The notes: a model not told the origin generated them from the letters alone. Positions 18,438 through 60,913 are shown, counted from the first letter of the stretch. The stretch: 64,000 nt of DNA from Dehalococcoidia bacterium (GCA_022825265.1 JAJDXE010000004.1:270341-334340), one strand, 5' to 3'. Numbers and translations are program-made.

Positions 18438-18792
18438 ACCGGTCGGCGTCTCCCTCCGCGGGCGAACGGAATCGAACAACCCCGAACGCTCGCGGACCTG
18501 GGGCCCGCCGAAAAAACCTGAAAAAACCTGAAAGTCCCAAATGCGCGATCCCCAGCAAAACACTGGAGATCGTGTCCGTTTTTCGCGGAATTCGGTCCAG
18601 AAAAAAAGTTCACCGAAAACCTGAAAGTCGCCGATGGTCGAACGCTCGGAGCGAAACCAATCCGGTCCCCGACTTGATCGGGGACCCGCTCGGCCCTCCG
18701 CCCAACGTCGGAACGCCTAGCGCTTATCCTGTCCGCGTTGCGCCGTGCAGCGCATCGAAGCCGAACACCACACACCGCACGAGGAGTGAACC

Positions 18793-19719
18793 ATGCCCCC
18801 AACCCCAGAGACCCAGGGACTGCTCGCCATGCTCGAGGAAGCCGGCGGCCCCGATATCTCCGAACAGACTCCCGAGGAAGCCCGCGCGGCGATCGCCAAC
18901 TTCGCGGCGATGCAGGCCGGCGCTCCCGAGCCCGCTCGTGTCGAAGACCGCACGGTGCCCGGTCCCGGCGGCGATATTCCCGTTCGCGTCTACGCCTCAG
19001 AGGGCGACAACCTGCCCGTCGTGATGTACTTCCACGGAGGCGGCTGGGTGCTGGGCGACATCGACTCGCACGACGGCACCTGCAAGCAACTGCTGGCTGA
19101 GCTGGGAGACGCTGCCGTCGTCTCCGTTCACTACCGGCTCGCGCCCGAGGCGAAGTACCCGGCAGCCGCCGACGACTGCTACGCCGCCGCTGCCTGGGTC
19201 GCCGAGAACGGCGCCGAGATCGGCGTCGACGGTTCACGCATGGCGGTCGCCGGAGACTCCGCCGGGGGCAATCTGTCGGCCGTCGTCTCGCAGATGGCGC
19301 GCGACAAGGGCGGCCCGGCGATTGCCGCTCAGGTCCTCCACGTCCCGGTCACCGACCACAACTACAGCTATCCCTCCTACACCGAGAACGCCGAGGGCAT
19401 GCTGCTCACGCGCGCCTCGATGGTCTGGTTCTGGGACCACTACCTGCCCAATGCCGACGCAGGCCAGGAAGCGTATGCGTCGCCGATCAAGGCCGCCGAC
19501 CTCTCCGGTCTCGCGCCGGCGCTGATCCAGACCGCCGAGTACGACCCGCTGCGCGACGAGGGCGAAGCCTACGGAGCCGCGATCGAGGCGGCCGGCGGCG
19601 ACGTCACGGTGCATCGCTACGACGGCGTCGTGCACGACCCGTTCATGATGTTCGCCGTGATCCCCACCGGCGTCGAATGCCTCAAGGAGGCCGCCGCCTT
19701 CATCAACGAGCGGATCTAG
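18793..19719 (+). CDS. HSL-family esterase.
   Basis: Contains HGGGW and GDSAGG, with a GGAG upstream of the ATG. Confidence 0.85.
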   Translation: MPPTPETQGLLAMLEEAGGPDISEQTPEEARAAIANFAAMQAGAPEPARVEDRTVPGPGGDIPVRVYASEGDNLPVVMYFHGGGWVLGDIDSHDGTCKQLLAELGDAAVVSVHYRLAPEAKYPAAADDCYAAAAWVAENGAEIGVDGSRMAVAGDSAGGNLSAVVSQMARDKGGPAIAAQVLHVPVTDHNYSYPSYTENAEGMLLTRASMVWFWDHYLPNADAGQEAYASPIKAADLSGLAPALIQTAEYDPLRDEGEAYGAAIEAAGGDVTVHRYDGVVHDPFMMFAVIPTGVECLKEAAAFINERI

Positions 19720-32716: not shown

Positions 32717-33592
32717 TCAGAAGATGGGGGTGCGCCAGTTTGGGGCGGCCCAGGCGAGGGCGAGGAAGACGCAGAGGACTCCGAGGCCGAGGACCAGGAC
32801 CTCGGGCAGCGGTCGGAGGATCTTGATTTTGGTTGCGGTCTGGATAAAGCCGGTCCAGTTGGGGAAGGTCCAGAGGATGACGGCGGCGATTGCGCCGACG
32901 ATCATGCCGCCGAGGTGGCCGCCGATGCTGATGTTGGGCCAGAGGAAGGAGATGACGATGTTGAGGACGAGGAAGGCGAGGATGCCGGAGTCTCGCCAAC
33001 GGACTCCGGAGGCTCGCTCGGCGATGACGACGGCGCCGGCGAGGCCGAAGACGGCTCCCGAGGCTCCGGCGGTGAAGCCGTTGGGCTCGACCAGTAGCGC
33101 GCCGAGCGCTCCGCCGGTGAGGGAGACTCCGTAGAGCAGCAGCATCCGCCACCAGCCGATGGCGGGCTCGAGCATTCGGCCGAGGAGGACGAGGATGAAG
33201 ACGTTCATGCCCATGTGGAGCAGGCCGTAGTGGAGGAAGGCTGAGGTGACGAGCCGCCACCACTCGCCGTTGTCGACGAAGCGGCCGTGCAGGGCGTAGT
33301 CGTAGTGGATCTCGGTCAGGCCGCCGCCCCAGAAGGCAAGGGAGCCGGTGTAGAGGGCGACGAAGATCCAGATCAGCGCGTTGGCGGCGGCCAGGCCCTG
33401 GGTCACCCGGATCGGCGAGGCGGTCGACCACTGGCGGGTCCGTTTGCGACCTTCGGCGACGCATTCGGGGCACTGGAAGCCGACCGCTGCCGTGATCATG
33501 CATTCGGTGCAGATCGGTCGTGAGCAGCGCTGGCAGAGGACGCCGGCCCAGGTGTCGGAGTGCCGGTAGCAGGAGGCGTCGCGCGAGCTCAT
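32717..33592 (-). CDS. Rhomboid-family intramembrane serine protease with N-terminal Cys-rich zinc ribbon.
   Basis: Contains GASGAVFGL (catalytic Ser) and GGHLGG (catalytic His), several TM segments, and N-terminal CxxC...CxxC. Confidence 0.8.
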   Translation of the reverse strand: MSSRDASCYRHSDTWAGVLCQRCSRPICTECMITAAVGFQCPECVAEGRKRTRQWSTASPIRVTQGLAAANALIWIFVALYTGSLAFWGGGLTEIHYDYALHGRFVDNGEWWRLVTSAFLHYGLLHMGMNVFILVLLGRMLEPAIGWWRMLLLYGVSLTGGALGALLVEPNGFTAGASGAVFGLAGAVVIAERASGVRWRDSGILAFLVLNIVISFLWPNISIGGHLGGMIVGAIAAVILWTFPNWTGFIQTATKIKILRPLPEVLVLGLGVLCVFLALAWAAPNWRTPIF

Positions 33593-33610
33593 AGCCTCAG
33601 TGTATGAGGG

Positions 33611-33926
33611 GGTGGTCGGTGGTTAGGGAGGAATTTTTTTCTGAGGCCGCTGTGAGAAAAAGAATCGCGATCTCCAGTGTTTTACGGGAGATCGTGAGCG
33701 TCTGGGTGGTCGGAAGTGGTTGGGGTTGGAAGGTGTTGGAAAGCGGGGGTGTCCAGTTGAGCCTTGCTCGGCTTTGCTGGGCGTGTGGCGAGTGGCTGAA
33801 TGGTCGGTGGTCGGGCCGGAAATTTTTTCCTGAGCGCGCCGAGGAAAAAAGAGGCACGATCTCCTGTGTTTTGCAGGGAATCTTGGAGAGCGAGGTGGTC
33901 GGAAGTGGTTTGGAAGGTGTTGGAAC
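33611..33926. repeat. Two tandem direct repeats of about 130 bp separated by about 60 bp, each carrying an A/U-rich hairpin. Possibly a duplicated sRNA or integration-site remnant.
   Basis: Unit 1 runs about 33611-33741 and unit 2 about 33801-33926, with long colinear identity. The hairpin is tttttct...agaaaaa in one copy and tttttcct...aggaaaaa in the other, a compensatory change. Local GC is lower than the genome. Confidence 0.6.
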
Positions 33927-34026
33927 GTTGGCGGTCACTGCGGATTGCTTCTCTTCTGCCTGTCGAACCTGTGTGCGTTATTCTATCGTGATGGGCGATG
34001 GGCTGGGGGAGTCGTAGGATTCAGCT

Positions 34027-37000
34027 ATGCCAACTCCGGAGCTATGCGGCAAATTCGCTCAATACATCCTCGATCGGCACAATCAGGCCGCCGCCGAGGC
34101 AGACATCCGAGCGGCGGCGCGCGACTTTCTGATCGAAACAGGACTCGCCGATCGCGAAGAGATCGACATGGAACAGTCACCGGCGAGCGGTTGGTCGGGA
34201 CGGGTCGACCTGCGGACGCGTGACGTCATTGTCGAGTTCAAGGTGAGAATCGGCGATCGGATCAACCCGGACGAGAAGCACGTCAACCAGCTCGACGACT
34301 ATCTCAAGGCGGCAGTGGAAGGCGGACGACCACAGCGATTCGGGATCCTGACCGACGGCAAGTACTGGGTTCTGAGATGGCCGGGGATGGGGCTGGTGCG
34401 GACGCAGGCGCCGCACGCCTTCACGCTGAACAGTGCTGACCAGGGCCTGCTGCTGTACGAGTGGCTGCGCGACCAATCGCAGGCGCTGGAAGAGCGTGGC
34501 GTGCCGCCAACGGAGGACGAAGTCAAGAAGCGACTGGGCGAGGGCCCGCGATTCGAGCAGCACATTGCTGCGCTCAACGACCTCTACCAGGCCAAGCGAG
34601 ATGATCCGACGATTGCTCTCAAGCGCGATCTCTGGCGGAGCCTGCTGGCTGCCGCGCTGGGTCAGGTGGTGGAGGAGGAACCGGACCTTGACGAGCTCTT
34701 TGTGCGACATACCTATCTCTCGGTCGTGGTCGGACTGGCGGTGCAGGCGGCGTTCGGGATTGAAATCGAAGGGGCGGCTAACAGCGATCCCGTCGCGCTG
34801 CTGGGCGGTCAATTGTTCGTCGACCAGACCGGCGTCAGCGGCGTGGTCGAGTCGGACTTCTTTACCTGGCCTGCGGAAATCGGCGGGGACGAGTGGATCC
34901 GCGACCTGGCGCAGCGGATTGGCTGGTTCGACTGGAACGAGGCGGAGTCGGACATTGCGCGGATTCTGTACGAATCGGTGATTCCCGCCGACGACCGGCG
35001 ACGGCTGGGCGAGTACTACACGCCCGACTGGCTGGCGCGGGAGATTGTCGACGCGGTGGTGACCGACCCGCTGAATCAGCGGGTGCTCGATCCGGCCTGC
35101 GGATCGGGATCGTTCATCTTCGCGGCGGTGCGCAAGTACCTGAGCGCGGCCCAGGCCGACGGGCGGAGCTCGGCGCAGGCGGTGGACGGACTGCTGGATC
35201 ACGTGATCGGGATCGACGTGCATCCGGTCGCGGTGCATCTCGCCCGGGCGACCTGGACGCTGGCCGCCCGCGACGCGCTGGAAGGCGCGGTCGCCGAAGG
35301 CCAGTCGGTCAACGCGACGGTGCCTGTCTACCTGGGCGACTCGCTGCAATTGCGGGCCGAGACCTCGGGCATGTTCGCCCAGCAGACGGTGACGATTCCC
35401 GTGCCCGACCCGCCCGACTCAGACCTCGAGTTCAACCGAGAGCTGGAGTTTCCCCGAGCCCTGGTCGAGCAAGCCGACTGGTTCGACAACCTCATGACGC
35501 GAATGGCCAACGCGATCGAGAACGGTGAGGACCCGGCCTGGGCGCTGGACGACGAAGCGATCGGCAGCGGGCCGGAGCGGGAGATGCTGGAGAAGACCGC
35601 CGCCCTGCTGCAGCAACTCCACGAAGAAGGCCGCGACCACATCTGGGCGTACTACACGCGGAACCTAGTACGTCCGGTGGCGCTGCGGGCGGATCCGGTG
35701 GATGTGATCGTCGGAAATCCGCCGTGGATCACGTACAACAAGACGCAGGCGGTGATTCGTGAGGAGTTGGAGCGGCAGAGCAAGCAGCGATACGAAATCT
35801 GGGCGGGTGGTCGCTACGCGACGCACCAGGACATCGCGGGCATGTTCTACGCGCGCTGCGTGGAGCTGTACCTCAAGCAAGGCGGCATGGCGGCGATGGT
35901 GCTACCGCACAGCGCCTTGCAGACCGGACAGTACACGAAGTGGCGAACAGGTCAGTGGGGCGTGCTATCGGTTGACCTGGGCGTGCGCCCGCCGTGGGAC
36001 CTCGAACAGGTCGAACCGAACAGCTTCTTCCCCGTCCCATCTTGCGTGGCGTTTCTGCTGCGCAGGGAACCGAGCGGTAAGCCGCTCGCAAGTCAGGCGG
36101 AGCGGTGGTTGGGGGGTGCCGGAGGGCCGTTCTCGCGTGAGCGAGTTCGCCTATTCGACACATCCGGCGACTTTGCATCGCCATATGGGGGACGTGCCAG
36201 GCAAGGTGCAACAATCGTGCCTCGTGTTCTCTTTTTCGTCAACGAACAGTCTTCAATGGCCGCCGTCCAAGCGGCCAACACCGTGACCGTCTCTCCTCGG
36301 CGAAGCAGACAAGAAAAAGCACCCTGGAAACACCTTCAGCTACCAGAGCTGAAGGGTCAGACGATTGAAGCTGGGCACGTCTTCGACGTTCACCTCGGTG
36401 AGACCCTTGCCCCGCATGTGTTGTTGACGCCCCTAAGGGCAGCCTTGCCTCTTGCGAAGTCAACAAGAGTGTTGGCCAAGGCGGAGGATGGTTGGTTTGG
36501 AGTGGATCCGTTATCACTCGACGAGCGAATGCGTCGTCGCTGGAGACGAATCAGTGGTATCTGGGATAAGCAGAAGGGTGTGAACAACAAGCTAAGCCTG
36601 CTTGAAAGATTGGATTACGTCGGCAATCTCACTAACCAGAGAACGCTTGTCTCGCTAGGCACGAGGATCGCCTACACGAAGTCCGGCCGTCCGACGGCAG
36701 CTGTTGTCGATGATGATGCAGCCGTCATCGATCACACGGCCTATTGGGTTCAAGTCGGTTCGGAGACCGAAGCACATTATATTTCCGCAGTCATCAATAG
36801 CGACACTCTGGAAGCTGCGGTCGCACCGCTCATGTCGAAGGGTCAGTTCGGCGCGCGCGACATGCATAAGCACCTCTGGCGACTGCCTATCCCCGAGTAC
36901 GACGACACCGACCCGCTCCACGTCGAACTGGCTGAGGCCGGTGAGGCGGCGGCGATTGGCGCGAAGGCGCTCTGGGATGGGGTTCGGGTTGAGCGCGAGG

Positions 37001-37116
37001 GCAAGGGTCAGTCGACATCGGTGACGGTGGCTCGGCGTGAGATACGGAAGTGGTTGTCGGAGTCGGCGGAGGGTCGGCGGGTGGAGGAGTTGGTGTCGAG
37101 GTTGTTGGGGGGTTAG
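34027..37116 (+). CDS. MmeI-family Type IIL restriction-modification enzyme: single polypeptide with N-terminal PD-(D/E)xK nuclease, N6-adenine methyltransferase and C-terminal specificity domain.
   Basis: 1029 aa. The N-terminal RVDLRTRDVIVEFKV matches the MmeI VDLx8IEMK nuclease motif. Also has GEYYTPDWLAREIV, LDPACGSGSFIF (motif I) and IVGNPPWITYNK (motif IV, NPPW, gamma-class amino-MTase). A C-terminal region of about 400 aa would be the target recognition domain. Confidence 0.75.
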   Translation: MPTPELCGKFAQYILDRHNQAAAEADIRAAARDFLIETGLADREEIDMEQSPASGWSGRVDLRTRDVIVEFKVRIGDRINPDEKHVNQLDDYLKAAVEGGRPQRFGILTDGKYWVLRWPGMGLVRTQAPHAFTLNSADQGLLLYEWLRDQSQALEERGVPPTEDEVKKRLGEGPRFEQHIAALNDLYQAKRDDPTIALKRDLWRSLLAAALGQVVEEEPDLDELFVRHTYLSVVVGLAVQAAFGIEIEGAANSDPVALLGGQLFVDQTGVSGVVESDFFTWPAEIGGDEWIRDLAQRIGWFDWNEAESDIARILYESVIPADDRRRLGEYYTPDWLAREIVDAVVTDPLNQRVLDPACGSGSFIFAAVRKYLSAAQADGRSSAQAVDGLLDHVIGIDVHPVAVHLARATWTLAARDALEGAVAEGQSVNATVPVYLGDSLQLRAETSGMFAQQTVTIPVPDPPDSDLEFNRELEFPRALVEQADWFDNLMTRMANAIENGEDPAWALDDEAIGSGPEREMLEKTAALLQQLHEEGRDHIWAYYTRNLVRPVALRADPVDVIVGNPPWITYNKTQAVIREELERQSKQRYEIWAGGRYATHQDIAGMFYARCVELYLKQGGMAAMVLPHSALQTGQYTKWRTGQWGVLSVDLGVRPPWDLEQVEPNSFFPVPSCVAFLLRREPSGKPLASQAERWLGGAGGPFSRERVRLFDTSGDFASPYGGRARQGATIVPRVLFFVNEQSSMAAVQAANTVTVSPRRSRQEKAPWKHLQLPELKGQTIEAGHVFDVHLGETLAPHVLLTPLRAALPLAKSTRVLAKAEDGWFGVDPLSLDERMRRRWRRISGIWDKQKGVNNKLSLLERLDYVGNLTNQRTLVSLGTRIAYTKSGRPTAAVVDDDAAVIDHTAYWVQVGSETEAHYISAVINSDTLEAAVAPLMSKGQFGARDMHKHLWRLPIPEYDDTDPLHVELAEAGEAAAIGAKALWDGVRVEREGKGQSTSVTVARREIRKWLSESAEGRRVEELVSRLLGG

Positions 37117-38321
37117 GCAATCGGAGCCTTCCGAAGTTCCGCGTAAGGAATCTCAGGAATGTCAAGCAACGCAGACAAGTCAACACCCTCTGTCCAAAGC
37201 AACTGACCATCGTGAACGTGAGCCGACGCTACACTCAGGAGTTCTTTCGGGAGGTTCTGCTTGTAATGAGGGTTGAGAAACAGACGATCTCCGTAGCCAG
37301 TAGGCGTTGTCGCGACTGGACGTGCATTGCCGAACAGCCATACAGCCGCGAGATTCTCATTTCGAGCAACGCCGCTCTTATCGATCCAGACGCCTCTCTC
37401 AAGCCTTGGTTCTCCTAACTTTACATTCCAGTCAGGAGGCCCGTACTCTCGATTGCGAAGGCCGAAAAGTGATACAAGTCCTTCTTCAGCAAAGTTGTAG
37501 AAGCCATCTACTGTGCTGCACGCAACAACTAAAGGAGCGTCCAGCTGGCCTACTCGTTTCTCCCGCGCCTTCCTGTCGACCGCGGCACCAAGTGTAGGAG
37601 ATACATCCTTTGCGCCACCACCGAACCAAGCTGCTATCGTTCGCCCGGCAGAGATACCCCACTTTTCTCGCGGCTTGGGCCAAAGCCCTACATGGAGACT
37701 GCAGCCATCGAGCTCAATCGTCACTGAAGGAGCGTCGACGCGACGTGAATAACTACCGTCGACCTGCTGGAGAACTCTATCGGGGTCGCTATCCGCCATA
37801 AGACGTCGAATGCGCGATTGGATGTATCTTTTGGATGGTTGATTTGTAGGACAGCCGGATGGACGGACAGTGACCAGAAAGTGAGGGTCGTCGATTTCAT
37901 CGATCCACGTGTAAATCTGGTCTAGGATCGCGTTATCTGGTATCTCGGCGCTCGATGCCTGACTTACGGTTGCTTCGAGGTAGAATCGATTATCTCCCGA
38001 TCGGGCAAGGAAGTCTGGTTGGGAGTTAACACCCGGCACCCTTGGATGGACGGTGACAGCAAAGCCGAGGCGGCGTAGGAGCTCATGCACAACGAGCTCA
38101 AAGTACGCGCCAAGATGTTGGCCCTCGTCGTCTGACGTGAAGCGGCCGTGCAAATCGTCTCGATGATGATCCGTGGATGGATAGTCCTCAAACATAGCTT
38201 GGCACAAATCGCGGGATCGAATGGAGACATTCCAAGATGATCGATTCAGGAACTCGTACTCGCTCTCAAGGTGGTGTTTGGCCGAGGAATCCATCTGGAT
38301 ATCGTGTTCGAAGAGCTGCAT
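37113..38321 (-). CDS. Hypothetical 402-aa protein of unknown function, lower GC, convergent with and overlapping the 3' end of the Type IIL gene.
   Basis: Long ORF with coherent codon usage distinct from the host. Has a possible degenerate PD-(D/E)xK-like stretch (QPDFLARSGDNRFYLEATVS). No family recognised. Confidence 0.5.
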   Translation of the reverse strand: MQLFEHDIQMDSSAKHHLESEYEFLNRSSWNVSIRSRDLCQAMFEDYPSTDHHRDDLHGRFTSDDEGQHLGAYFELVVHELLRRLGFAVTVHPRVPGVNSQPDFLARSGDNRFYLEATVSQASSAEIPDNAILDQIYTWIDEIDDPHFLVTVRPSGCPTNQPSKRYIQSRIRRLMADSDPDRVLQQVDGSYSRRVDAPSVTIELDGCSLHVGLWPKPREKWGISAGRTIAAWFGGGAKDVSPTLGAAVDRKAREKRVGQLDAPLVVACSTVDGFYNFAEEGLVSLFGLRNREYGPPDWNVKLGEPRLERGVWIDKSGVARNENLAAVWLFGNARPVATTPTGYGDRLFLNPHYKQNLPKELLSVASAHVHDGQLLWTEGVDLSALLDIPEIPYAELRKAPIA

Positions 38322-38438
38322 GGCGGTCGATCCTCCAGCGATTGTTGTATCACGAAATCACGACGGTGGGTGGGATGTGGAGCGGCTATAGGTCGCGGTA
38401 GGTGGCTTCGTTGCGGCGGAGAACGTCGGTGATCGTGA

Positions 38439-38924
38439 TCAGGCGGGCGCGGCTTCAGTGAGCGTGACCGAGTGTGGGTTGTAGGAGAGGGCGAGGTCGA
38501 AGGAGCGGAGGGCGTCCTGGCCGAGGAGACTGGGGGCTTCCCAGTTGCTATCGGGCGTGGGTAGTGGGGTGGATGGCCGGGCGATCAGGATTGGTTGATC
38601 GACGACCACGGGCTTGTGCTCTTCGTCGCTGAAGGTCAGGCTAGCGGGCCGAATCACGTACTGACTCGCGCTGCCGCTGATCCCGTAGAGGTCGAAACGG
38701 GCGATGTCCCGGTCAAAGTCGATGCCCTGATAGGCCGCCCCCAGGACAGCACGCGCATGAGCTGGAGACAGCGCGGTGTAGTCCGCCCCGGTGTCGATCT
38801 GCATCCAGATCGCCGCGCTACGGCCCGCAATCTGAACCGATACGCGAACCACGGGCCGCAACACATTGCCGAGAAGCGGATGAAAGGAAGCTTCGCTCTC
38901 AAACTCCGCTCGAACCCGCGCCAC
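38439..38924 (-). CDS. Retropepsin-like (clan AA) aspartic protease.
   Basis: 161 aa with an IDTGADYTAL (DTGA) aspartyl-protease motif and a GTG start that overlaps the upstream stop (TAGTG). Confidence 0.65.
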   Translation of the reverse strand: MARVRAEFESEASFHPLLGNVLRPVVRVSVQIAGRSAAIWMQIDTGADYTALSPAHARAVLGAAYQGIDFDRDIARFDLYGISGSASQYVIRPASLTFSDEEHKPVVVDQPILIARPSTPLPTPDSNWEAPSLLGQDALRSFDLALSYNPHSVTLTEAAPA

Positions 38925-39222
38925 TACTGCGCTCGTTTGGGACGGGGGAAGGAATCAGCATGACGGAGCATCGGCCGCCGCCGAATGAAGTAGTGATAGG
39001 CGCCGCGCCGCTGTGAATCGGGCAGCGCTTCCAGCGCGGCGAACATCTCGGCAGGGTGGTCGAAGATGTGGATCGTCTCCGCGTCGTAGATCAGGACCCA
39101 TTTTCCGCGATTGTGAGGAGAGATTTCGGCGCTCTGCTCGGCCCAGCAAGCGACGTTGCGCTCGTACACGGCAAGATCCGCAAGTTGAGTCTCAACGTCG
39201 GACGCGTGCTGACTGCTGACCA
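38924..39222 (-). CDS. Small conserved hypothetical protein (about 99 aa, possibly DUF5678-like), translationally coupled to the retropepsin-like protease.
   Basis: Sequence MVSSQHASDVETQLADLAVYERNVACWAEQSAEISPHNRGKWVLIYDAETIHIFDHPAEMFAALEALP... It is embedded as the C-terminus of a long spurious antisense ORF in the track. Its stop overlaps the protease start by 1 nt. Confidence 0.5.
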
Positions 39223-39322
39223 TGATGAACGGCCTCCCTGTCGACGATGGTAATCGAACGTGTGCCCACCCTCTACACTGGCCCCAGACCTCCCGCGTAC
39301 CCCTCCGATGAAGGAGTTTCCG

Positions 39323-40561
39323 ATGAAGTTTCACTGGTTCAACCTGATGCCCTGGCCTCATCTTCCGGATGATTTCCGGGAGACGAATCGGTCGGTCTGG
39401 GTCGATGTGGACTCTCGGCTGTATGACCCGGTGGAGGGTCACCGGGTGTACAACGAGTACCTGGACCAGCTTGAGTTTGCGGCCGGGCTGGGCTTTGACG
39501 GGATCGGCGTGAACGAGCATCACCAGAACGCGTACGGGATGATGCCGTCGCCGCAGATCATGGCGGCCTCGCTGGCTCGGCGGACGAAGGACGTGACGCT
39601 GCTGCTGCTGGGTCAGTCGATTGCGCTGTACAACCCGCCGACTCGGGTGGCGGAGGAGATGGCGATGCTCGACGTGATGTCGGGCGGTCGGCTGGTGGCG
39701 GGATTCCCGGTGGGGACGTCGATGGACGACAACTTCTGCTTCGGCTCGAATCCGGCGACGCTGCGGGACAAGTACAGGGAGAATCACGACCTGATCCGTC
39801 GGGCGTGGGAGGATCCGGATGTCTTCTCGTGGAACGGCGAGTACAACAAGATTCGCTACGTCAACCTCTGGCCGCGTCCGATCCAGAAGCCGCACCCGCC
39901 GATCTGGATTCCCGGCGGCGGCTCGGTGGAGACCTGGGACTTCTGCGCGGAGATGGGCTACAACTACAGCTATCTCTCGTTCAATGGCTATGTCCGCGGT
40001 GAGGCTCTGATGCAGGGCTTCTGGAATCGGCTGGGCGAGATGGGCGTCGAGTTCAATCCGTTCCAGGGCGCGTTTGCGCAGCAGGTCGTGGTCGCCGAGA
40101 CCGACGATCAGGCCGAGCAGATGTACACCGAGCATCTGCAGTACTTCTTCGACAAGTGTCTGCATGTGTATCCCGGCTTCGCCGACGCGCCCGGGTACCG
40201 GACCGAGAACACAATCCGGGCCGGTCTGCGAGCCGGCGGCGCGCAGGGTCTGGGCATTGCGCACACGCTCGAGTGGAAGGACTGGGTGCGCGAGGGCTAC
40301 ATCGTGGCCGGCTCGCCGGACTCGGTGGCGGAGCAGATCGAGGCCCTGGCGACGAAGCTGCAGGTCGGCCACCTGGTGACTCTGCTGCACTGCGGCGACA
40401 TGCCGGACGACAAGGCTCGGGCGTCGACGAAGCTGTTCGCCGAGCAGGTGATGCCTCGGGTGAAGCACATCTGGGAAGACTACGAAGATCACTGGTCGCC
40501 GAAGCCGATCGGCTCGGAGCAGGTCGCGACGCCGGCTCCGGTGCTGACGGGCTCCAACTAG
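39323..40561 (+). CDS. LLM-class flavin-dependent oxidoreductase.
   Basis: Begins MKFHWFNLMPWPHLPDDFRETNRSVWVD...NEHHQN. An AAGGAG sits 7 nt upstream of the ATG at 39323. Confidence 0.8.
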   Translation: MKFHWFNLMPWPHLPDDFRETNRSVWVDVDSRLYDPVEGHRVYNEYLDQLEFAAGLGFDGIGVNEHHQNAYGMMPSPQIMAASLARRTKDVTLLLLGQSIALYNPPTRVAEEMAMLDVMSGGRLVAGFPVGTSMDDNFCFGSNPATLRDKYRENHDLIRRAWEDPDVFSWNGEYNKIRYVNLWPRPIQKPHPPIWIPGGGSVETWDFCAEMGYNYSYLSFNGYVRGEALMQGFWNRLGEMGVEFNPFQGAFAQQVVVAETDDQAEQMYTEHLQYFFDKCLHVYPGFADAPGYRTENTIRAGLRAGGAQGLGIAHTLEWKDWVREGYIVAGSPDSVAEQIEALATKLQVGHLVTLLHCGDMPDDKARASTKLFAEQVMPRVKHIWEDYEDHWSPKPIGSEQVATPAPVLTGSN

Positions 40562-40787: not shown

Positions 40788-42038
40788 GTGAAGTTCCACT
40801 GGTTTCACGGGATGCCGTGGCCGCATTTGCCGGCCGATTTCCGTGAGCGCAATCGATCCGTGTGGGTTGACGCCGACTCGCGGTTGTACGAGCCGGTCGA
40901 GGGCCACCGGCTGTATCACGAATACCTGGATCAGCTCGAGTTCGCCGAGCGCGTTGGTTTCGACGGGCTGGTGCTCAACGAGCATCATCAGCACGTCTTT
41001 GGCCTGATGCCGTCGCCTCAATTGATGGCGGCGGCGTTGGCCCGGCGAACGTCGCGGGCGGCGATCGTTCTGCTGGGCATGTCGATCGCGCTCTACCGTC
41101 CGGCGACGCGGGCGGCGGAGGAGATCGCGATGCTCGACGTGATCTCCGGCGGCCGGATCGTGGCTGGATTTCCACTCGGCACGCCGATGGACGCAAACTA
41201 CGCCTATGGAGCGAATCCGGCGGAGTTTCGTCGCGTCTACCGCGAGCACCACGATCTGATCCTGCGGGCCTGGAAGGATCCGGACGTATTCACCTGGAAC
41301 GGCGAGTCGGCGAAGCTGCGCTACGTGAATGTCTGGCCGCGTCCGGTTCAGCAGCCGCATCCGCCGGTCTGGATTCCCGCGGATGGCGTCTCGTCGGAGA
41401 CGTGGGACTTTTGTGCTGAGCACAGGTACGCCTATGTTTGTCTCGCCTCTCGCGGATTCGCACCGGCGCAGTCGGCGATGGACGGATTCTGGTCGCGAGT
41501 TGAGTCGCGAGGGATCCCATGCAATCCGTACCAGGGTGTGGTTTCTCAAACGATTGTGGTGGCTGAATCCGATGAGGAGGCGCAGGAACGGTATCAGCCG
41601 CATCTGGACTACACGTCGCGGCACACGCTTGGCGACTTCCCCGGCTGGACCGAGGCGCCCGGCTGGCGCACGGAGCGGGGCATCCGCGAACGCGCCGTCC
41701 GAACGATGGCCGACCTGGGTAATCCAACTCCGCCGCGCATCCCGACGTGGCAAGAGCGAATAGACAGCGGCTCGCTGGCCGCCGGTTCGCCGGTGACGGT
41801 CACCGAGCACTTGGAGCACCTGGTGACAACGCTGCGCGCCGGCCACCTGGTCGGCGTGTTCCACGTCGGCGATATGCCGCACGACGCGACCCTGCGCAGC
41901 ACTCGACTGTTTGCTGAGCAGGTAATCCCACGTCTGCGACACTTGTGGGACGATTACGACGACCACTGGTCGCCGACCCCGATCGCGACCGAACCACTGA
42001 AACGAACGACTGAACCCGAACTCGCAGGAGTGAACTGA
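40788..42038 (+). CDS. LLM-class flavin-dependent oxidoreductase, paralogue of 39323-40561.
   Basis: GTG start. MKFHWFHGMPWPHLPADFRERNRSVWVD..., colinear with the upstream paralogue. Confidence 0.8.
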   Translation: MKFHWFHGMPWPHLPADFRERNRSVWVDADSRLYEPVEGHRLYHEYLDQLEFAERVGFDGLVLNEHHQHVFGLMPSPQLMAAALARRTSRAAIVLLGMSIALYRPATRAAEEIAMLDVISGGRIVAGFPLGTPMDANYAYGANPAEFRRVYREHHDLILRAWKDPDVFTWNGESAKLRYVNVWPRPVQQPHPPVWIPADGVSSETWDFCAEHRYAYVCLASRGFAPAQSAMDGFWSRVESRGIPCNPYQGVVSQTIVVAESDEEAQERYQPHLDYTSRHTLGDFPGWTEAPGWRTERGIRERAVRTMADLGNPTPPRIPTWQERIDSGSLAAGSPVTVTEHLEHLVTTLRAGHLVGVFHVGDMPHDATLRSTRLFAEQVIPRLRHLWDDYDDHWSPTPIATEPLKRTTEPELAGVN

Positions 42039-45946: not shown

Positions 45947-46405
45947 ATGACCAACACATCGGAATCGACGGAGCTGGCGCTCAGACTGCTTCGCCAACTG
46001 ACCGAGACGGTCGAGCAACTGTCGGGTCTGTCGGACGACGATTTGGCGTTTCCGACGGAGCATGGCTGCGCGATGAATGGCGGCGTTCGGCGGCTGCTGG
46101 TTCACAACGCGGAGCATGATCGGATGCATGCGGGGGCGGTCTCGACGGCGCGCTACACGGCGAAGCAGATGCAGGAGTCGCCGCTTTCGCATCTGACCCG
46201 CGATCTGATTTTCCAGCGGGCCGAGCTGGTGGGTCAGTTGCTGCATATGGACGACTCGTTGCTGGATGCGAAGGCTCCGAACGACGAGTGGTCGATCCGG
46301 GAGCATGTCGAGCACGTGCTGTACTGGGAGAACAACTCGATGTCGCAGGTGGCGTCGGAGATGAAGTCGCAGGCAGGCTCGGCGGCGGCGGGAGGTTTGG
46401 GATGA
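45947..46405 (+). CDS. DinB-family protein.
   Basis: 152 aa with LLVHNAEHDRMHAG and HVEHVLYWE His motifs. Confidence 0.55.
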   Translation: MTNTSESTELALRLLRQLTETVEQLSGLSDDDLAFPTEHGCAMNGGVRRLLVHNAEHDRMHAGAVSTARYTAKQMQESPLSHLTRDLIFQRAELVGQLLHMDDSLLDAKAPNDEWSIREHVEHVLYWENNSMSQVASEMKSQAGSAAAGGLG

Positions 46406-47595
46406 CATCGACTCAGCGATATGACGTGGCCGTTGTTGGACTGGGCGCGATGGGATCGGCTGCGGCCTGGCATCTGGCGCGGCGCGGACAGCGGGTGATC
46501 GGGTTTGATCGATTTCATCCGCCTCACATGATGGGCTCGACGCATGGCGATACTCGCGGGATCCGCGAGGCGTACTACGAGGGTCCGTCCTACGTGCCGT
46601 TCGTTCGGCGGGCGTATGAGTTGTGGGACGAGCTGTCGGAGCTGGTTGGGCAGCCGCTGTTCCGGCAGACCGGGTCGCTGACCCTGGGCACGGAAGGCTC
46701 GCTGCAGATCAACGGCGTGCTGGCCAGCGCTCGCGAGCATGACATTCCGATCGATTACATGGACGGCGCCGAGCTGAAGCAGCGCTATCCGGCGATCCTG
46801 GCGACCGATGACCTGGTCGGGATCCTGGAGCATCGGGGCGGGATGATCGAGATCGAACCGGCGCTCAAAGGTCAGCTCGACCAAGCGGCGAAGCACGGGG
46901 CGGAGCTGCACTTCGACGAGCCGGTCGAGCGCTGGCTGCCGCAGGAGATGGACGACGTCGAATCGCCGATCGTGATCAACACGGCCAAGGGGACCTACGA
47001 GGCTGAGCGGATGGTCGTGACGGCCGGCGCCTGGAACGCGGGCTTGGTGGGCAAGCTCAACCTGCCGCTTCTGGTGACCCGGCAGGTGATGTTCTGGTTC
47101 GAGCCGCGGGCCAATCCGGAGGCGTTCGAGGTCGGCGCGCTGCCCTTCTGGATGTGGGAGCGCGGACCGCAGGACTTCGCCTACGGATTCCCAAACGTTG
47201 GCAAGGGATTCAAGCTGGGGCATCATCAGCCGCTGGATGAGGTGGATCCGAACGGCTACAACCAGGAGATGACGGCCGAGGACGAGGCGAACGTCCGCCA
47301 GTGGCTCGAGCGCACGTTCCCGGATGTCGGCGGCAAGCTGCTGCGGGCCGAGACCTGCATGTACACCAGCACGCCCGACGCGCACTTCCTGATCGACATT
47401 CATCCGAAGCGTCCGAACATCGTGCTGGCCAGTCCGTGTTCGGGTCACGGGTTCAAGTTCTCGCCGGCGATCGGCGAGGCGCTGGCCGACCTGAGCATGT
47501 ATCGCAAGACCGAGCACGACCTTGGTCTGTTCCGCGTGGACCGGTTTGTCGAGCGGCCCGGCGAGCAGGCGTCGCAGTCGGCGGCGGGGGACTGA
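46402..47595 (+). CDS. FAD-dependent sarcosine oxidase / N-methyl-L-tryptophan oxidase family (MSOX/SolA-like).
   Basis: Begins MTSTQRYDVAVVGLGAMGSAAAWHLARRGQRV (a GxGxxG FAD site). C-terminal ASPCSGHGFKF is typical of MSOX. Its start overlaps the DinB stop (ATGA). Confidence 0.8.
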   Translation: MTSTQRYDVAVVGLGAMGSAAAWHLARRGQRVIGFDRFHPPHMMGSTHGDTRGIREAYYEGPSYVPFVRRAYELWDELSELVGQPLFRQTGSLTLGTEGSLQINGVLASAREHDIPIDYMDGAELKQRYPAILATDDLVGILEHRGGMIEIEPALKGQLDQAAKHGAELHFDEPVERWLPQEMDDVESPIVINTAKGTYEAERMVVTAGAWNAGLVGKLNLPLLVTRQVMFWFEPRANPEAFEVGALPFWMWERGPQDFAYGFPNVGKGFKLGHHQPLDEVDPNGYNQEMTAEDEANVRQWLERTFPDVGGKLLRAETCMYTSTPDAHFLIDIHPKRPNIVLASPCSGHGFKFSPAIGEALADLSMYRKTEHDLGLFRVDRFVERPGEQASQSAAGD

Positions 47596-47601
47596 CGGAC
47601 G

Positions 47602-48543
47602 ATGCCGCAGCGGGTCGCGGTGGTGGGAGCTGGCGCTGTCGGCGGTTACTTCGGCATGCGCCTCGCCGAGGCGGGCCATGATGTTCGCTTCCTGATGCGG
47701 CGCGACTATGAGGCGGTCAAGGCGGGCGGCCTGCACCTGAGCAGCCATCTTGGCGATATGTCGCTAGACTCTCCGACGATCGAGCGGACGCCCGAGGCGC
47801 TGGCCTCGCACGGTCCGGTCGACTGGGTCCTGGTCGGGCTCAAGGCGACCGCGATTCCCGACATTCCGAAGCTGGTCGGACCGCTGCTGTCTGAGGGCAC
47901 GCGAGTTCTTGCGATCATGAACGGCCTAACCGTCGACGACGAGATCGCCGCCCAGTTGCCCGAGGGCACGTCGCTATTCGGCGGGCTCGGTTTCATCGGC
48001 GTGATCCGCGGCGAGCTAGGGCGGATCCTGCACCAGGAGTTCGGCGCCATCAACCTCGGACATCACGGCGACGACCCCGACGAGCTGCAGCGCGGCGTCG
48101 ACCTGTTCGCCGGCAGCAAGGTCGAGATCCGGCCCGAACCGAGCCTGCTGCGGGCGCGCTGGGAGAAGCTCTGCTGGAACATTCCCTTCAACGGGTTGTG
48201 CGTGATCGCGGGCGGCGTGCCCGTCGACCAGGTGATCGAGGAGCCGCCGCTCTACGACGCCGCCTACGAGATCATCCGCGAGATCGTGGACGCCGGCAAC
48301 GCCGACCTCGAAGCCCACGGCGAGACCGTCCGCATCGACGGCCCCCGCATCGCCAACCAGTTCCTCACGCAGACGCTCGGGATGGGCGCGTATCGGCCGA
48401 GCACGGTGATCGACTACAACGAGGGCCGGCCGCTGGAGCTGGAGGCGATCTTCCGCCAGCCCGTGCAGCGAGCGAGTGAGTTGGGGGTGGGGGTTCCGAT
48501 GATGTCGATGGTGGCGTCGCTGGTTGGGAAGCTGGGTGGTTAG
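47602..48543 (+). CDS. panE: 2-dehydropantoate 2-reductase (ApbA/PanE family).
   Basis: Begins MPQRVAVVGAGAVGGYFG (Rossmann fold). Contains the conserved ...KLCWN... Confidence 0.75.
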   Translation: MPQRVAVVGAGAVGGYFGMRLAEAGHDVRFLMRRDYEAVKAGGLHLSSHLGDMSLDSPTIERTPEALASHGPVDWVLVGLKATAIPDIPKLVGPLLSEGTRVLAIMNGLTVDDEIAAQLPEGTSLFGGLGFIGVIRGELGRILHQEFGAINLGHHGDDPDELQRGVDLFAGSKVEIRPEPSLLRARWEKLCWNIPFNGLCVIAGGVPVDQVIEEPPLYDAAYEIIREIVDAGNADLEAHGETVRIDGPRIANQFLTQTLGMGAYRPSTVIDYNEGRPLELEAIFRQPVQRASELGVGVPMMSMVASLVGKLGG

Positions 48544-48701
48544 GCGGTGCTGAGGATGTGCCTGTTGTATCGGGAGGGGAGGGTGCTGAGTCGGGGGTTG
48601 ACAGTGTCGGAGGTGGCTTGGTTCTCGGAAGTTGCGCGCCGGGCTCAAATGACTCTATCTATGTCAGAGAGCAGCTAAGCCTCGCTCACGGAGCTGTCAG
48701 G

Positions 48702-49814
48702 ATGCACATGGGACACAAGCTTTCTCAAGTCGGTCGCTGGCTCGCTCGAAACGCATTACGGCACCGACGGTGGCTCATCGCAATCCTTATTGTGTATGTG
48801 ATTGTTCGGGGCCTGTCATACGTCGATTTGGCTGCCGACATACCATGGGGATGGGCAGATCACCTCAAGTCGTGGATCACGGAGAATTCGTCTGGACGAG
48901 AGTCTGGAAGCACAACCATACGCAATGTAGGGTTAGTTGTAGGTGGCTTCTTTGCGCTCGTACTCGCGTGGTGGCGAACTCGAATCGCGCAACGAGAAGC
49001 GCAGACAGCACAGCAGGGCCTTTTAAATGAGCGCTACCAGGGTGCCGCAGAGATGCTCGGAAGCGATCAACTGTCGGCCCGCTTAGGCGGGATTTACGCA
49101 CTTGAACGTCTACTTGAGGACGATCTTCAGCGATACTACCCAGAGGTTGTGCGGTTGTCTTGCGCATTCGTGCGCCGCCCGAAGGATGATGAGTCCGCGG
49201 AAATAGCCGATCGATTACGTGAAGATGTACAGGCGGTTCTCGACCTGATCGGTCGCCGAAACAGTGCGGTGGATGCTGAGATGCGAAGGATAATCCCGGA
49301 CGAGCCGAGGGAAATGTTCTCTATGCGCGTAGGGGTCTTCGACCTTTCCGGTGCTGTTATTCGCAAGGCGATTGTGATGGTCCCAAATTTTACCGGAGTG
49401 ATATTCACGAATGCAGATATGACAGGGATTATAAGCTATCAACCCATATTCACAGATGCAGAGCTAAATGGGGCAAGACTGACCGAAGCGAAGATTTTCA
49501 AAGGCAATTTCACTAAAGCAGACCTTTCTGGCTCCGACTTATCCGGTGCGCAACTGCCTGAGGCGAATCTTACAAATGCGGAGTTCACCGAGGCAAAGCT
49601 AGCAAACGCCAATCTGATTGAGACCAACCTGAGCGGTGCAGTTCTGCAAGCGGCAGACATTTCGGGTGTGCAGTTCTCGCGTGATGGTGAGAGGTGTGCG
49701 ACAGGTCTAACACAGCAGCAATTGGACGAGGCGATCGCGGATCCTGACAATCCCCCAGTGATCGTTGGCGTTGTGGATGCGGAAACCGACTTGCCTTTGG
49801 TATGGCGGGATTGA
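48702..49814 (+). CDS. Pentapeptide-repeat protein with N-terminal transmembrane anchor, encoded in a low-GC segment.
   Basis: Two TM helices (WLIAILIVYVIVRGL; VGLVVGGFFALVLAWW). The C-terminal half is built of A(D/N)LxG-type pentapeptide repeats. The track starts it at 48558; an internal Met at 48702 with GGAG upstream is preferred. Confidence 0.7.
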   Translation: MHMGHKLSQVGRWLARNALRHRRWLIAILIVYVIVRGLSYVDLAADIPWGWADHLKSWITENSSGRESGSTTIRNVGLVVGGFFALVLAWWRTRIAQREAQTAQQGLLNERYQGAAEMLGSDQLSARLGGIYALERLLEDDLQRYYPEVVRLSCAFVRRPKDDESAEIADRLREDVQAVLDLIGRRNSAVDAEMRRIIPDEPREMFSMRVGVFDLSGAVIRKAIVMVPNFTGVIFTNADMTGIISYQPIFTDAELNGARLTEAKIFKGNFTKADLSGSDLSGAQLPEANLTNAEFTEAKLANANLIETNLSGAVLQAADISGVQFSRDGERCATGLTQQQLDEAIADPDNPPVIVGVVDAETDLPLVWRD

Positions 49815-55042: not shown

Positions 55043-55425
55043 GGGTAACATTGCTCCTTGCACCCCTAGTTCAGCAGCCCTCGTTCTGACGCGAGGCGAC
55101 CGACCTCGGGATGCGCCTTTACAAGGGACATAGTGATTGAGATGCGTCCACAGCATCCCCCCGGAAGTCGGCGACGGCGCCGGTTTCCAACGACATCAGG
55201 GGGGCTGCGGGAAACTCTCGCGACGGCTGGTTGCTTGCTGCAGCTGGACGGGCGCGGGAGGTACGTGTGTGGTTCTAGATGACATGCAAGATGACTGCGC
55301 TGGTCCCCGGATTTGCCTCGGGGACGTAACCAGCGCGGCGCGCGGCACGATCGGGAGCCTCGAGGAGCGCAACTACCTCGGGGACTGGCTCTCGATCAGA
55401 AGTGCATGCGCGTGGCGTAGCGCAG

Positions 55426-58420
<2,995 letters not shown>

Positions 58421-58548: not shown

Positions 58549-58623
58549 TGCGGGATAGAGCAGCGGTAGCTCGTCAGGCTCATAACCTGGAGGTCGTGGG
58601 TTCGAATCCCACTCCCGCTACCA
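58549..58623 (+). tRNA. tRNA-Met (anticodon CAT), fMet-like sequence.
   Basis: TGCGGGATAGAGCAGCGGTAGCTCGTCAGGCTCATAACCTGGAGGTCGTGGGTTCGAATCCCACTCCCGCTACCA folds as a cloverleaf with a CTCATAA anticodon loop and an encoded CCA. It is highly similar to bacterial initiator tRNA, but the 1:72 pair appears to be U-U. Confidence 0.8.
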
Positions 58624-60767: not shown

Positions 60768-60913
60768 CCACAGCCCTCCATGTCGGAGTGTATGCCCCTA
60801 CGAACCGTTGACGGGAAGCGCGTTCCGGTGTGCGGCAGCCGCGTTAGCATGAGCCTCGTTCCTCTCCTCAATCATTCAGCGAGTCACCGCGGGCCAGCGG
60901 AAGCGTTTCATCG

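Follow-up and report, generated by a model that had tools for sequence, protein, structure and literature searches.

The 5.6 kb between a rhomboid protease gene and a luciferase-like monooxygenase (LLM) gene appears to be a compact defence or addiction island, long resident but fluid, in which two convergent transcription units flank a variable slot and low GC marks the pieces that are exchanged. We give this reading a probability of roughly 0.68. The sequence analyzed, referred to here as the window, is 64 kb long and comes from a Dehalococcoidia metagenome-assembled genome (MAG). The block is likely a small movable unit that carries anti-virus genes. Its contents are a single-chain restriction enzyme of an ordinary kind, a nuclease that stands alone, lacks annotation, and is a distant relative of a proven phage-defence protein, and a protease paired with a small protein. 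All four of the features listed for this block in an earlier note, made from the sequence alone, are present where it placed them, and two of the four descriptions (the repeat and the GC dip) were loose. The features are as follows:

32717-33592, minus strand: rhomboid protease, core gene of the left flank (Pfam Rhomboid, 1.2e-28)
33597-33752, plus strand: intergenic element, copy 1 (profile from seven relatives, E 4.7e-41)
33788-33943, plus strand: intergenic element, copy 2, a diverged duplicate (same profile, E 1.7e-33)
18542-18614, minus strand: third, partial copy of the element, outside the island (nhmmer E 2.2e-10)
34027-37116, plus strand: predicted single-chain Type IIG restriction-modification (RM) enzyme of 1029 aa, a fused nuclease and N6-adenine methyltransferase
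34207-34242, plus strand: nuclease motif D61...E70-F-K72 of the RM enzyme (PD-ExK, N-terminal), invariant in 27 homologues of 54-82% identity
35086-35115, plus strand: SAM-binding motif I of the RM enzyme, LDPACGSGSF, aa 354-363 (L354, D355, P356, C358, G359, G361 and F363 invariant)
35716-35727, plus strand: catalytic methyltransferase motif IV of the RM enzyme, NPPW, aa 564-567 (N564, P565, P566 and W567 invariant)
36108-36816, plus strand: putative target-recognition region of the RM enzyme, low in GC, placed by a homology break and by composition
37113-38321, minus strand: 402-aa stand-alone PD-(D/E)xK-type nuclease candidate (p402), member of a large unannotated family
38389-38445, minus strand: remnant of a ParE/RelE-type toxin gene, its last 17-19 codons (ITITDVLRRNEATYRDL and stop; tblastn with ParE of loci L002 and L008, E 4e-6 and 5e-5)
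38439-38924, minus strand: 161-aa retropepsin-like aspartic protease candidate (D44-T45-G46 and LLGxD invariant in eight homologues of 35-43% identity)
38924-39223, minus strand: 99-aa partner protein, translationally coupled to the protease (TAGTG overlap)
39260-40561, plus strand: LLM, core gene of the right flank (Pfam Bac_luciferase, 1.4e-36), its true start probably at 39324 and not 39260

In the arrangement that we propose, the left end would consist of a promoter-proximal conserved element, duplicated in the window, and then the RM enzyme. The middle slot would be occupied in this genome by the 402-aa nuclease, and the right end by the coupled small protein and protease. The order SDR, rhomboid, RM, variable slot, small protein with retropepsin-like protease, and LLM is found in at least 11 species-level relatives, with SDR-rhomboid-RM-...-LLM synteny in L008, L009, L012, L014-L018, L021, L022, and L026. 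The block is therefore long resident and not newly acquired in the window genome. The rhomboid protease is 73-84% identical among syntenic relatives. The slot after the RM gene holds alternative cargo in relatives: a DUF4917/PDC-S21 gene (1.7e-80), Abi_C/AbiJ, a ParE toxin-antitoxin system, an IS element, or the 402-aa gene. The RM gene itself has a frameshift in L018, L020, L021, and L026, and L003/L004 and L006 have lost it by deletion.

The block from the RM gene to the protease is also found at other chromosomal sites in other genomes. It adjoins an ABC transporter in L010 and ECH in L005, L011 and L013 are two further sites within one genome, and in L019 and L023 it lies between homologues of the window genes at 45950-46387 and 46420-47550, a site that is unoccupied in the window. 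Variable content and several chromosomal sites are thus the marks of an island that we found. Deviant composition of the whole block was not seen, and no integrase, transposase, terminal repeats, or att-like repeats were found in the window block, the last of which had been proposed as something to look for at its borders. Junction alignments at the block ends were uninformative. The earlier note had called the block a horizontally acquired defence island; its island behavior holds up in the varying cargo, the decay and loss of genes, and the other sites, but a recent acquisition marked by low GC does not agree with synteny in at least 11 species-level relatives.

GC was computed in 600-nt windows across the 64 kb (mean 0.632, sd 0.032). 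Inside the block, GC drops by more than 2 sd from the mean only at 36.2-36.8 kb and 37.0-38.4 kb. The first corresponds to residues ~721-930 of the RM enzyme (GC 0.549, GC3 0.571) and the second to the 402-aa gene (GC 0.536, GC3 0.533). The remaining RM gene (0.65-0.66), the protease gene (0.644), and the 99-aa gene (0.613) have flank-like GC, the 434-nt intergenic stretch has a GC of 0.558, and GC is equally low at three other places in the 64-kb window. The dip that had been ascribed to the whole block is real, at ~3 sd, but extends over only ~2.1 kb of the 5.66 kb, made up of the recognition region of the RM enzyme and the 402-aa gene. Both are low in GC in all relatives that carry them. 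Because this holds for the recognition region in every relative, the dip in that region is uninformative on recent transfer. As part of the main reading and with the same confidence, we take low GC as the mark of the recognition region and the slot gene, which are the two pieces most often exchanged, and not of a recent arrival of the whole block.

The same observations bear on the idea that the block is effectively core to the clade, with the GC dip arising in two fast-evolving segments from the composition of their proteins or from relaxed codon usage. The position between rhomboid and LLM that at least 11 species representatives share, the recognition region that is low in GC throughout, and the lack of mobility genes and att sites in the block are what such a locus would show. 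It is nonetheless unlikely, given the cargo that varies among relatives, an RM gene that is broken or missing in several, and at least four other positions where this RM subclade is present, sometimes without the protease pair, one of them a site that is unoccupied in the window. The protease pair is also only 35-47% identical, as against 91-97% for the flanking LLM. Conservation of the RM gene and protease pair in at least 11 species is also compatible with a quasi-core locus.

The island begins with an intergenic repeat (33597-33943), which had been described as a 130-bp tandem repeat. The repeat is there, but it is not a tandem array: Tandem Repeats Finder reported no repeat in the region, and what is present are two diverged, dispersed-type direct copies of ~125-155 nt each with a period of 189 nt, ~76% identical (BLAST E 2e-18), whose cores are separated by ~60 nt of unrelated sequence. 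Copy 1 adjoins the rhomboid start codon and is the copy closest to the single copy of relatives (82% identical). It consists of an AT-rich inverted repeat (TTTTTTTCT..AGAAAAAGA), a hairpin (CGATCTCC-AGTGTTTTAC-GGGAGATCG), and a G/T-rich tail. Copy 2 ends ~100 nt upstream of the RM start. The duplication is particular to the window genome, since relatives have one copy only. The third copy lies between two divergent Abhydrolase_3 genes. A search of Rfam with the element gave no match.

The RM enzyme, aligned over its full length with more than 100 homologues, belongs to a subfamily mostly restricted to Dehalococcoidia/Chloroflexota MAGs. Its sequence supports assignment to Type IIG, as an Eco57I-like enzyme with intact catalytic motifs. 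Like Eco57I and BpuSI, it has in one chain an N-terminal PD-ExK nuclease, a gamma-type N6-adenine methyltransferase with motifs I and IV, and a variable C-terminal target-recognition region. PADLOC, proposed earlier as a check, matched it as REase_MTase_IIG (1.1e-69), although only the methyltransferase part is covered (profile positions 296-691). The Pfam models N6_Mtase (47.8 bits, cut-off 20.4) and Eco57I (34.1 bits, cut-off 25.3) also matched, and comparison with solved structures of the Type IIG class found no match by sequence. Nucleotide homology of the RM gene to L010, L016, and L025 stops at ~36108 and returns after ~36786. The enzyme would methylate adenine in an asymmetric site and cut unmodified incoming DNA at a distance.

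The enzyme had been named Type IIL, a class defined by methylation of a lone strand, and this was not established. It resembles the MmeI family in overall domain order and has a weak match to the MmeI_Mtase domain, but its 26.9 bits fall just short of the Pfam cut-off, 27. The Pfam models for the other MmeI parts (N-terminal, helical, TRD, and C-terminal) went unmatched, and solved MmeI-type structures gave no sequence match.

The gene for p402 is convergent with the RM gene and their stop codons overlap, as had been noted for a tail-to-tail protein at this position. Its family, spread over bacteria and archaea, has 3,754 representatives (~3,750 clusters at 50% identity). In the predicted model (pLDDT 92), p402 has the alpha-beta-beta-beta-alpha-beta core fold of PD-(D/E)xK nucleases. 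The conserved acids are E75 (helix 66-84), D103 (before strand 104-108), and E116 (strand 111-120). T118 replaces the canonical lysine of (D/E)xK, and K251, invariant elsewhere in the chain, may have a role.

Among 80 members of the p402 family, 68 matched the PADLOC model for PD-T7-5 (PDLC04110, best E 4.6e-12) and 30 matched PD-T7-1. The PD-T7-5 match is confined to ~100 N-terminal residues (profile positions ~15-118 of 346). The window p402 matched no PADLOC model at E<=0.01, and its closest relatives also fall below the PD-T7-5 model. PD-T7-5 and PD-T7-1, which come from the E. coli pangenome, each act against phage as a single protein (Vassallo et al. 2022, PMC9519451, where orphan DNase-like defence proteins were reported), and both are classed among PD(D/E)XK defence proteins (PMC10952713). 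By sequence, the N-terminal module of the p402 family is common to these two validated phage-defence proteins. All consist of one chain of ~350-450 aa in which a PD-(D/E)xK module is accompanied by a large part without recognizable domains, but the sequences of the C-terminal two thirds are unrelated and p402 has T118 in place of lysine. The statement that the RM enzyme alone has a described family was too strong: the p402 family as such carries no name, but its nuclease module is that of PD-T7-5 and PD-T7-1. We predict that p402 would act as an independent single-gene anti-phage or abortive nuclease, with its unmatched C-terminal ~230 residues conferring sensing or target choice.

It had also been suggested that the neighbors form an accessory system that travels with the RM enzyme. 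For p402, this would mean a two-gene system in which it serves as a second nuclease, a modification-dependent back-up, or a cleavage partner. Several arrangements fit: the genes lie tail to tail with overlapping stops in the window and L002, a convergent RM and p402 pair is present in L025 (a different allele) and L005 (an unrelated site), and an RM 3'-end remnant still follows each p402 paralogue in L003/L004. We nevertheless consider this unlikely, at about one chance in ten. Among the 80 closest RM loci from species-representative genomes, 76 lack a family member within 7 kb, unrelated genes fill the slot in other relatives, and the p402 gene stays intact after RM loss. The two genes are convergent and so would not be co-transcribed. 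A profile comparison of p402 with the RM enzyme found no similarity. In a sample of ~12 independent neighborhoods, some of them on plasmids, family members occur near RM, Abi, CBASS, and toxin-antitoxin genes, adjoining Type I RM, Dcm/Vsr, Abi_C, CBASS, or nothing recognizable. We conclude that p402 is not an obligate partner of the RM enzyme.

A further possibility is that p402 is a selfish or mobility nuclease (homing, excision, or transposition helper) that makes or moves the variable slot. Its fold neighbors include XisH, the R2 retrotransposon endonuclease, TnsA, and a homing endonuclease. In L003/L004 a second p402 copy with its flanks stands in place of most of the RM gene, and at the ECH site p402 is at the border of a region whose content otherwise changes. 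Such a role is very improbable for a gene that is single-copy in almost all contexts, has sequence affinity to the defence proteins PD-T7-5 and PD-T7-1, and did not turn up in the searches made of 50,697 phage genomes and IMG/VR; no terminal repeats, reverse transcriptase, transposase, or intron or intein context was found either.

The slot of the proposed island also retains a trace of earlier cargo. At the position of the ParE remnant, L002, L008, and L003 have an intact ParE and partner. As in ParE/RelE type II toxin-antitoxin systems, the slot ParE of relatives (Pfam 9.6e-8) has a partner of ~180 aa upstream, but in the window the module is deleted, so what is left is a scar and not a working system. 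A ParE toxin-antitoxin pair that once stood beside p402 would have been lost except for these last codons.

The right end (38439-39223) is the coupled pair of small protein and aspartic protease that had been described, with the protease as a candidate. The TAG stop of the 99-aa ORF and the GTG start of the protease ORF overlap by 1 nt, and the ATG of the 99-aa ORF has a GGGAGG ribosome-binding site 9 nt upstream. A small homologous ORF overlaps the start of every protease homologue (12 loci). The protease shares with clan AA retropepsins the invariant DTG triplet and the downstream LLGxD, and its family profile matches FIV and HTLV retropepsins (E 3e-4 for the FIV protease). It differs in length (161 aa vs ~100-125 aa) and in always being preceded by the coupled ~100-aa partner. 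Scores fall below the Pfam cut-offs for gag-asp_proteas (23.6 bits, cut-off 28.2) and Asp_protease_2 (20.2 bits, cut-off 24.3), and NCBIfam gave no match. Family searches with the 99-aa protein gave no match, and its relatives were detected only within the clade. Membership of DUF5678 was considered and set aside: Pfam PF18929 was matched by one of nine homologues, at E 0.16.

The pair is conserved and fast-evolving, keeps its DTG intact, and accompanies the RM subclade to three chromosomal sites. It might conceivably be a toxin-antitoxin-like or protease-triggered module that would help to retain the island. It could instead be a housekeeping processing protease with its substrate or regulator, tied to the adjacent LLM gene and unrelated to defence or addiction. 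The pair is directly upstream of and divergent from LLM in most relatives and has no PADLOC or toxin-antitoxin family match. We regard a housekeeping role as rather unlikely, however, as the pair accompanies the RM gene at sites that lack LLM in L011 and L019, is pseudogenized in L006 and L016 and absent in L008, L020, and L021 where LLM is retained, and diverges far faster than LLM.

Taken jointly, these results allow a broader reading that we hold only tentatively and think doubtful as a whole. The 402-aa family may be a large, unnamed, cross-domain group of stand-alone defence nucleases, found in Bacteria and Archaea and without a Pfam, NCBIfam, or PADLOC model of its own, that combines a PD-T7-5-like module with a new C-terminal sensing domain. 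The small protein and retropepsin-like protease may form a new protease-based toxin-antitoxin or abortive-infection module, and this would travel with the Type IIG enzyme as a cassette-accepting mini-island without a recognizable recombinase.

The block between the rhomboid protease gene and the luciferase-like monooxygenase (LLM) gene is a genuine compact putative defence/addiction island. Its contents are an ordinary Type IIG restriction-modification (RM) enzyme, what is left of a ParE module, and two further components that are uncharacterised. The genes named in an earlier note on this DNA are all found in the window, at the following coordinates, which agree with that note:

32717-33592, minus strand: rhomboid protease gene
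34027-37116, plus strand: gene for the 1029-aa RM enzyme
37113-38321, minus strand: 402-aa ORF (candidate stand-alone nuclease), convergent with the RM gene, the two stop codons overlapping
38439-38924, minus strand: 161-aa ORF (retropepsin-like protease candidate)
38924-39223, minus strand: 99-aa ORF, ending in a TAG stop that overlaps the 161-aa ORF at its GTG start
39260-40561, plus strand: LLM gene

For the LLM gene, the ATG at 39324 is the most likely start, rather than the GTG at 39260; GAAGGAG precedes this ATG, and the LLM proteins of relatives can be aligned to that of the window only from residue ~13-22 on. A second LLM paralogue (40788-42038) is 57% identical to the first.

The flanking and internal genes have their nearest relatives in Dehalococcoidia (Chloroflexota) MAGs. 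The gene order SDR, rhomboid, RM, a variable 0.2-4.2 kb, small ORF and protease (in most loci), LLM and second LLM is found in at least 11 species-representative genomes (loci L008, L009, L012, L014-L018, L021, L022, L026) and in several metagenome contigs (L002-L004, L006, L020, L025). Amino-acid identity to the window is 85-95% for SDR, 73-84% for the rhomboid protein, 91-97% for LLM, 65-81% for the RM enzyme and only 35-47% for the protease. Given this shared synteny, both the RM gene and the protease pair have long been established at the site, which counts against the recent acquisition implied by the earlier note.

The genomic island is a well established concept, and the island idea holds here for variable cargo, gene decay, a ParE scar and alternative sites, but not for a recent arrival. 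The slot directly 3′ of the RM gene holds different genes among relatives: the 402-aa gene (window, L002, L025), a DUF4917 protein matching the PADLOC candidate PDC-S21 at 1.7e-80 (L012, L013, L026), an Abi_C/AbiJ-like protein (L011, L016), a repeat protein (L008, L022), a membrane protein (L014), ParE toxin-antitoxin pairs, and an IS transposase (L011). The RM gene is frameshifted or truncated in L018, L020, L021 and L026 and reduced to a remnant of 60 aa in L003/L004 and 26 aa in L006; the protease gene is interrupted in L006 and L016. In the window, a scar at 38389-38445 (minus strand) encodes ITITDVLRRNEATYRDL*, the C-terminus of a ParE toxin, and an intact ParE occupies its position in L002, L008 and L003. 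The conserved ~55 nt 3′ of the protease gene, considered as an attC-like cassette site, are actually the 3′ end of the deleted ParE gene.

The block also occurs at other sites. An RM gene (77% identical) with its upstream intergenic element adjoins an ABC transporter in L010, and an RM gene with a 402-aa homologue is located after an enoyl-CoA hydratase gene in L005. L011 and L013 are two more copies of the block within one genome. In L019 (7001-12542) and L023 (7001-11368) the block lies between homologues of the window genes 45950-46387 and 46420-47550, accompanied in L019 by the protease pair; the junction 46387-46420 is uninterrupted in the window. The att-like direct repeats that the earlier note proposed to look for at the block borders were not found, and neither were an integrase or terminal repeats; the junction alignments at the alternative site are too diverged to read. 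L003 (2226-3881), like L004, carries two tandem cassettes that each start with an RM 3′-end remnant followed by a different 402-aa paralogue, with a ParE remnant and a protease remnant between them. This arrangement resembles the outcome of two alleles of the locus recombining, with the RM gene deleted afterwards.

Low GC had been offered as the mark of a foreign block. The dip is real but partial: against a window mean of 0.632 (sd 0.032, 600-nt windows), it is confined to RM residues ~721-930 (GC 0.549, GC3 0.571) and the 402-aa gene (GC 0.536, GC3 0.533), both more than 2 sd below the mean. The remaining genes of the block resemble the flanks, and the low-GC argument is unsupported in its original form. 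The window has a second clearly low-GC gene elsewhere, the pentapeptide-repeat gene at 48480-49811 (GC 0.547, GC3 0.536), which may likewise be foreign or fast-evolving; a third low-GC stretch (61200-61700, 0.54-0.56) lies within the ORF 60848-62512. The window also encodes a 23S rRNA gene (55425-58416, plus strand), followed by tRNA-Met (58549-58623). No 16S or 5S gene was found in the 64 kb with Rfam at gathering thresholds, so the rRNA genes are unlinked here.

The RM enzyme matches the PADLOC model REase_MTase_IIG at 1.1e-69 and scores above the Pfam cut-offs for N6_Mtase and Eco57I. All 27 homologues compared (54-82% identity) keep three features unchanged: D61...E70-x-K72 near the N-terminus, motif I at 354-363 and NPPW at 564-567. 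The copy in the window is full length and thus probably active. The evidence falls short of the label Type IIL: the score for the MmeI methyltransferase model is 26.9, where the cut-off is 27, the other MmeI domains are absent, and no solved MmeI-type chain is matched. Nucleotide homology of the RM gene to some relatives is lost at ~36108-36786 and regained after it, a pattern that would be expected of an exchangeable recognition domain. In every relative examined, this recognition segment has a GC of 0.53-0.60 versus 0.63-0.67 in the rest of the gene. No homologues of the enzyme were found in the viral-contig and phage searches. The enzyme is an ordinary one.

Upstream of the RM gene, the reported 130-bp tandem repeat turned out to be two spaced direct copies of an intergenic element (33597-33752 and 33788-33943; ~76% identical, 189-nt period), and Tandem Repeats Finder reports no array. 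Relatives have a single copy that extends from ~20 nt off the rhomboid start to ~100 nt before the RM start. The element is also upstream of the RM gene in the different genomic context of L010, and it is retained in L003/L004 after RM loss. Its hairpin, GATCTCC-AGTGTTTTAC-GGGAGATC, is almost invariant and lies beside an AT-rich inverted repeat. A third, partial copy (18542-18614, minus strand) is in the ~930-nt spacer between divergent Abhydrolase_3 genes (16932-17861, minus strand, and 18793-19719, plus strand). A metagenome scan added three contigs that carry the element, and on two of these the copies come in pairs; in the unrelated contigs L097 (379-705) and L099 (2966-3239) the copies are ~185-260 nt apart, so pairing is recurrent in this hairpin element. 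There was no Rfam match at gathering or permissive thresholds, and promoter and terminator scans of the element gave nothing above shuffled expectation. RNAalifold on both strands gave no useful covariation and, with the hairpin invariant, RNA structure is neither supported nor excluded. Candidate roles for the element are those of promoter/operator module, small RNA and REP/MITE-like repeat.

The 402-aa protein has no Pfam, NCBIfam, PADLOC or PHROGs match. A word-indexed protein search returned only 7 relatives; an exhaustive profile search reached far wider, with 3,754 representatives (50% clustering), of which 1,177 score below 1e-30. Lengths are ~380-400 aa for nearly all members, those returned with names are all "hypothetical" (one from a Bathyarchaeia archaeon), and a Pfam scan of 80 members found nothing. 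In an alignment of 80 sequences, four residues (E75, E116, K251, G287) do not vary and four more (P102, D103, F104, A117) are conserved at 90% or more. We used a structure model built from these 80 sequences (pLDDT 92, pTM 0.91) instead of a 7-sequence version (pLDDT 66). The model places E75 on a helix (66-84), D103 at the start of a strand (104-108) and E116 on a strand (111-120), a predicted PD-(D/E)xK arrangement, with T118 at the customary lysine position. Foldseek of the model against PDB and viral models gave no significant full-length match, and a PDB-sequence profile search with the family returned nothing meaningful. Three sub-clades with mutual identity of ~32-40% are present in Dehalococcoidia, and two of them occupy the slot behind the RM gene.

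Links to defence come from family members. The PADLOC model PD-T7-5 is matched by 68 of the 80 (best E 4.6e-12) and PD-T7-1 by 30; the PD-T7-5 match is limited to the N-terminal module (profile positions ~15-118 of 346). Both are single-protein anti-phage systems from a functional selection in E. coli (PMC9519451) and are classed among PD(D/E)XK proteins (PMC10952713); how such orphan DNase-like proteins sense phage was left unexplained by their discoverers (PMC9519451). The prophage/phage family phrog_8571 of PHROGs (366-position profile) also matches the N-terminal nuclease module of members; it probably represents PD-T7-5-like proteins on the viral side. No member of the 402-aa family was found among the phage genomes or viral contigs searched. 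Genes of the family occur directly 3′ of hsdS, in a Type I RM island that also has Schlafen-like and nucleotidyltransferase genes; with Abi_C, SNF2 helicase and integrase genes; adjoining Vsr and Dcm; adjoining HicB; and on P. aeruginosa and A. baumannii plasmids. The A. baumannii plasmid pWM98-2 (L101, 4846-9164) encodes a complete type III CBASS (cyclase, HORMA, TRIP13 and NucC), and a 402-aa homologue, annotated hypothetical, is 4 nt downstream of the NucC effector.

The proposal that the 402-aa gene is part of an accessory system travelling with the RM enzyme is unsupported as stated, on three counts. A family member is near the RM gene in one of 80 genome RM loci (L025), and otherwise in the window, L002 and L005; two paralogues persist in L003/L004 despite the RM deletion; and profile-profile comparison shows no relationship between the two proteins. 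Descent from the RM nuclease domain was rejected (hhalign profile-profile probability 0.2%). The best reading of the 402-aa protein is a putative independent single-gene defence or abortive nuclease, often in defence neighbourhoods.

The 161-aa protein retains D44-T45-G46 and an LLGxD motif in eight homologues (35-43% identical). Its family profile matches FIV/HTLV retropepsins at E 3e-4; the single protein scores below the cut-offs of the Pfam aspartic-protease models. A small ORF overlaps the start of every protease homologue (12 loci), and these ORFs have the common core "ERN..F....L..Y..WLLIY....V.AF.D". The 99-aa protein has no family or structural match, including in a PDB-sequence profile search with its family; a likeness to DUF5678 was unsupported on testing. 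The pair accompanies this RM subclade and no other, and it occupies three different sites (the rhomboid/LLM site, L011, L019). The protease was absent from the viral-contig, phage and plasmid searches, and we found no relevant literature on the pair. The coupled translation of the pair, its rapid divergence, its occasional pseudogenisation and its joint movement with the RM gene would fit a putative toxin-antitoxin-like or protease-triggered module.

Novelty lies in the large unannotated 402-aa nuclease family, only distantly linked to PD-T7-5, and in the RM-to-protease mini-island layout with its swap slot; each varies a known kind and is not a new category, and nothing in the locus overturns current ideas. 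The nuclease family is missed or only marginally caught by current defence-finding tools, and its Pseudomonas and Acinetobacter plasmid members, such as the homologues on pWTJH36 and pWM98-2, are directly testable. Dehalococcoidia are uncultured or difficult to grow and, to our knowledge, their phage defences are almost unstudied. The simple, repeatedly reused layout, in which the RM gene and the protease pair form the two ends of a block around a swap slot, is usable as bait for harvesting new defence candidates in these bacteria.
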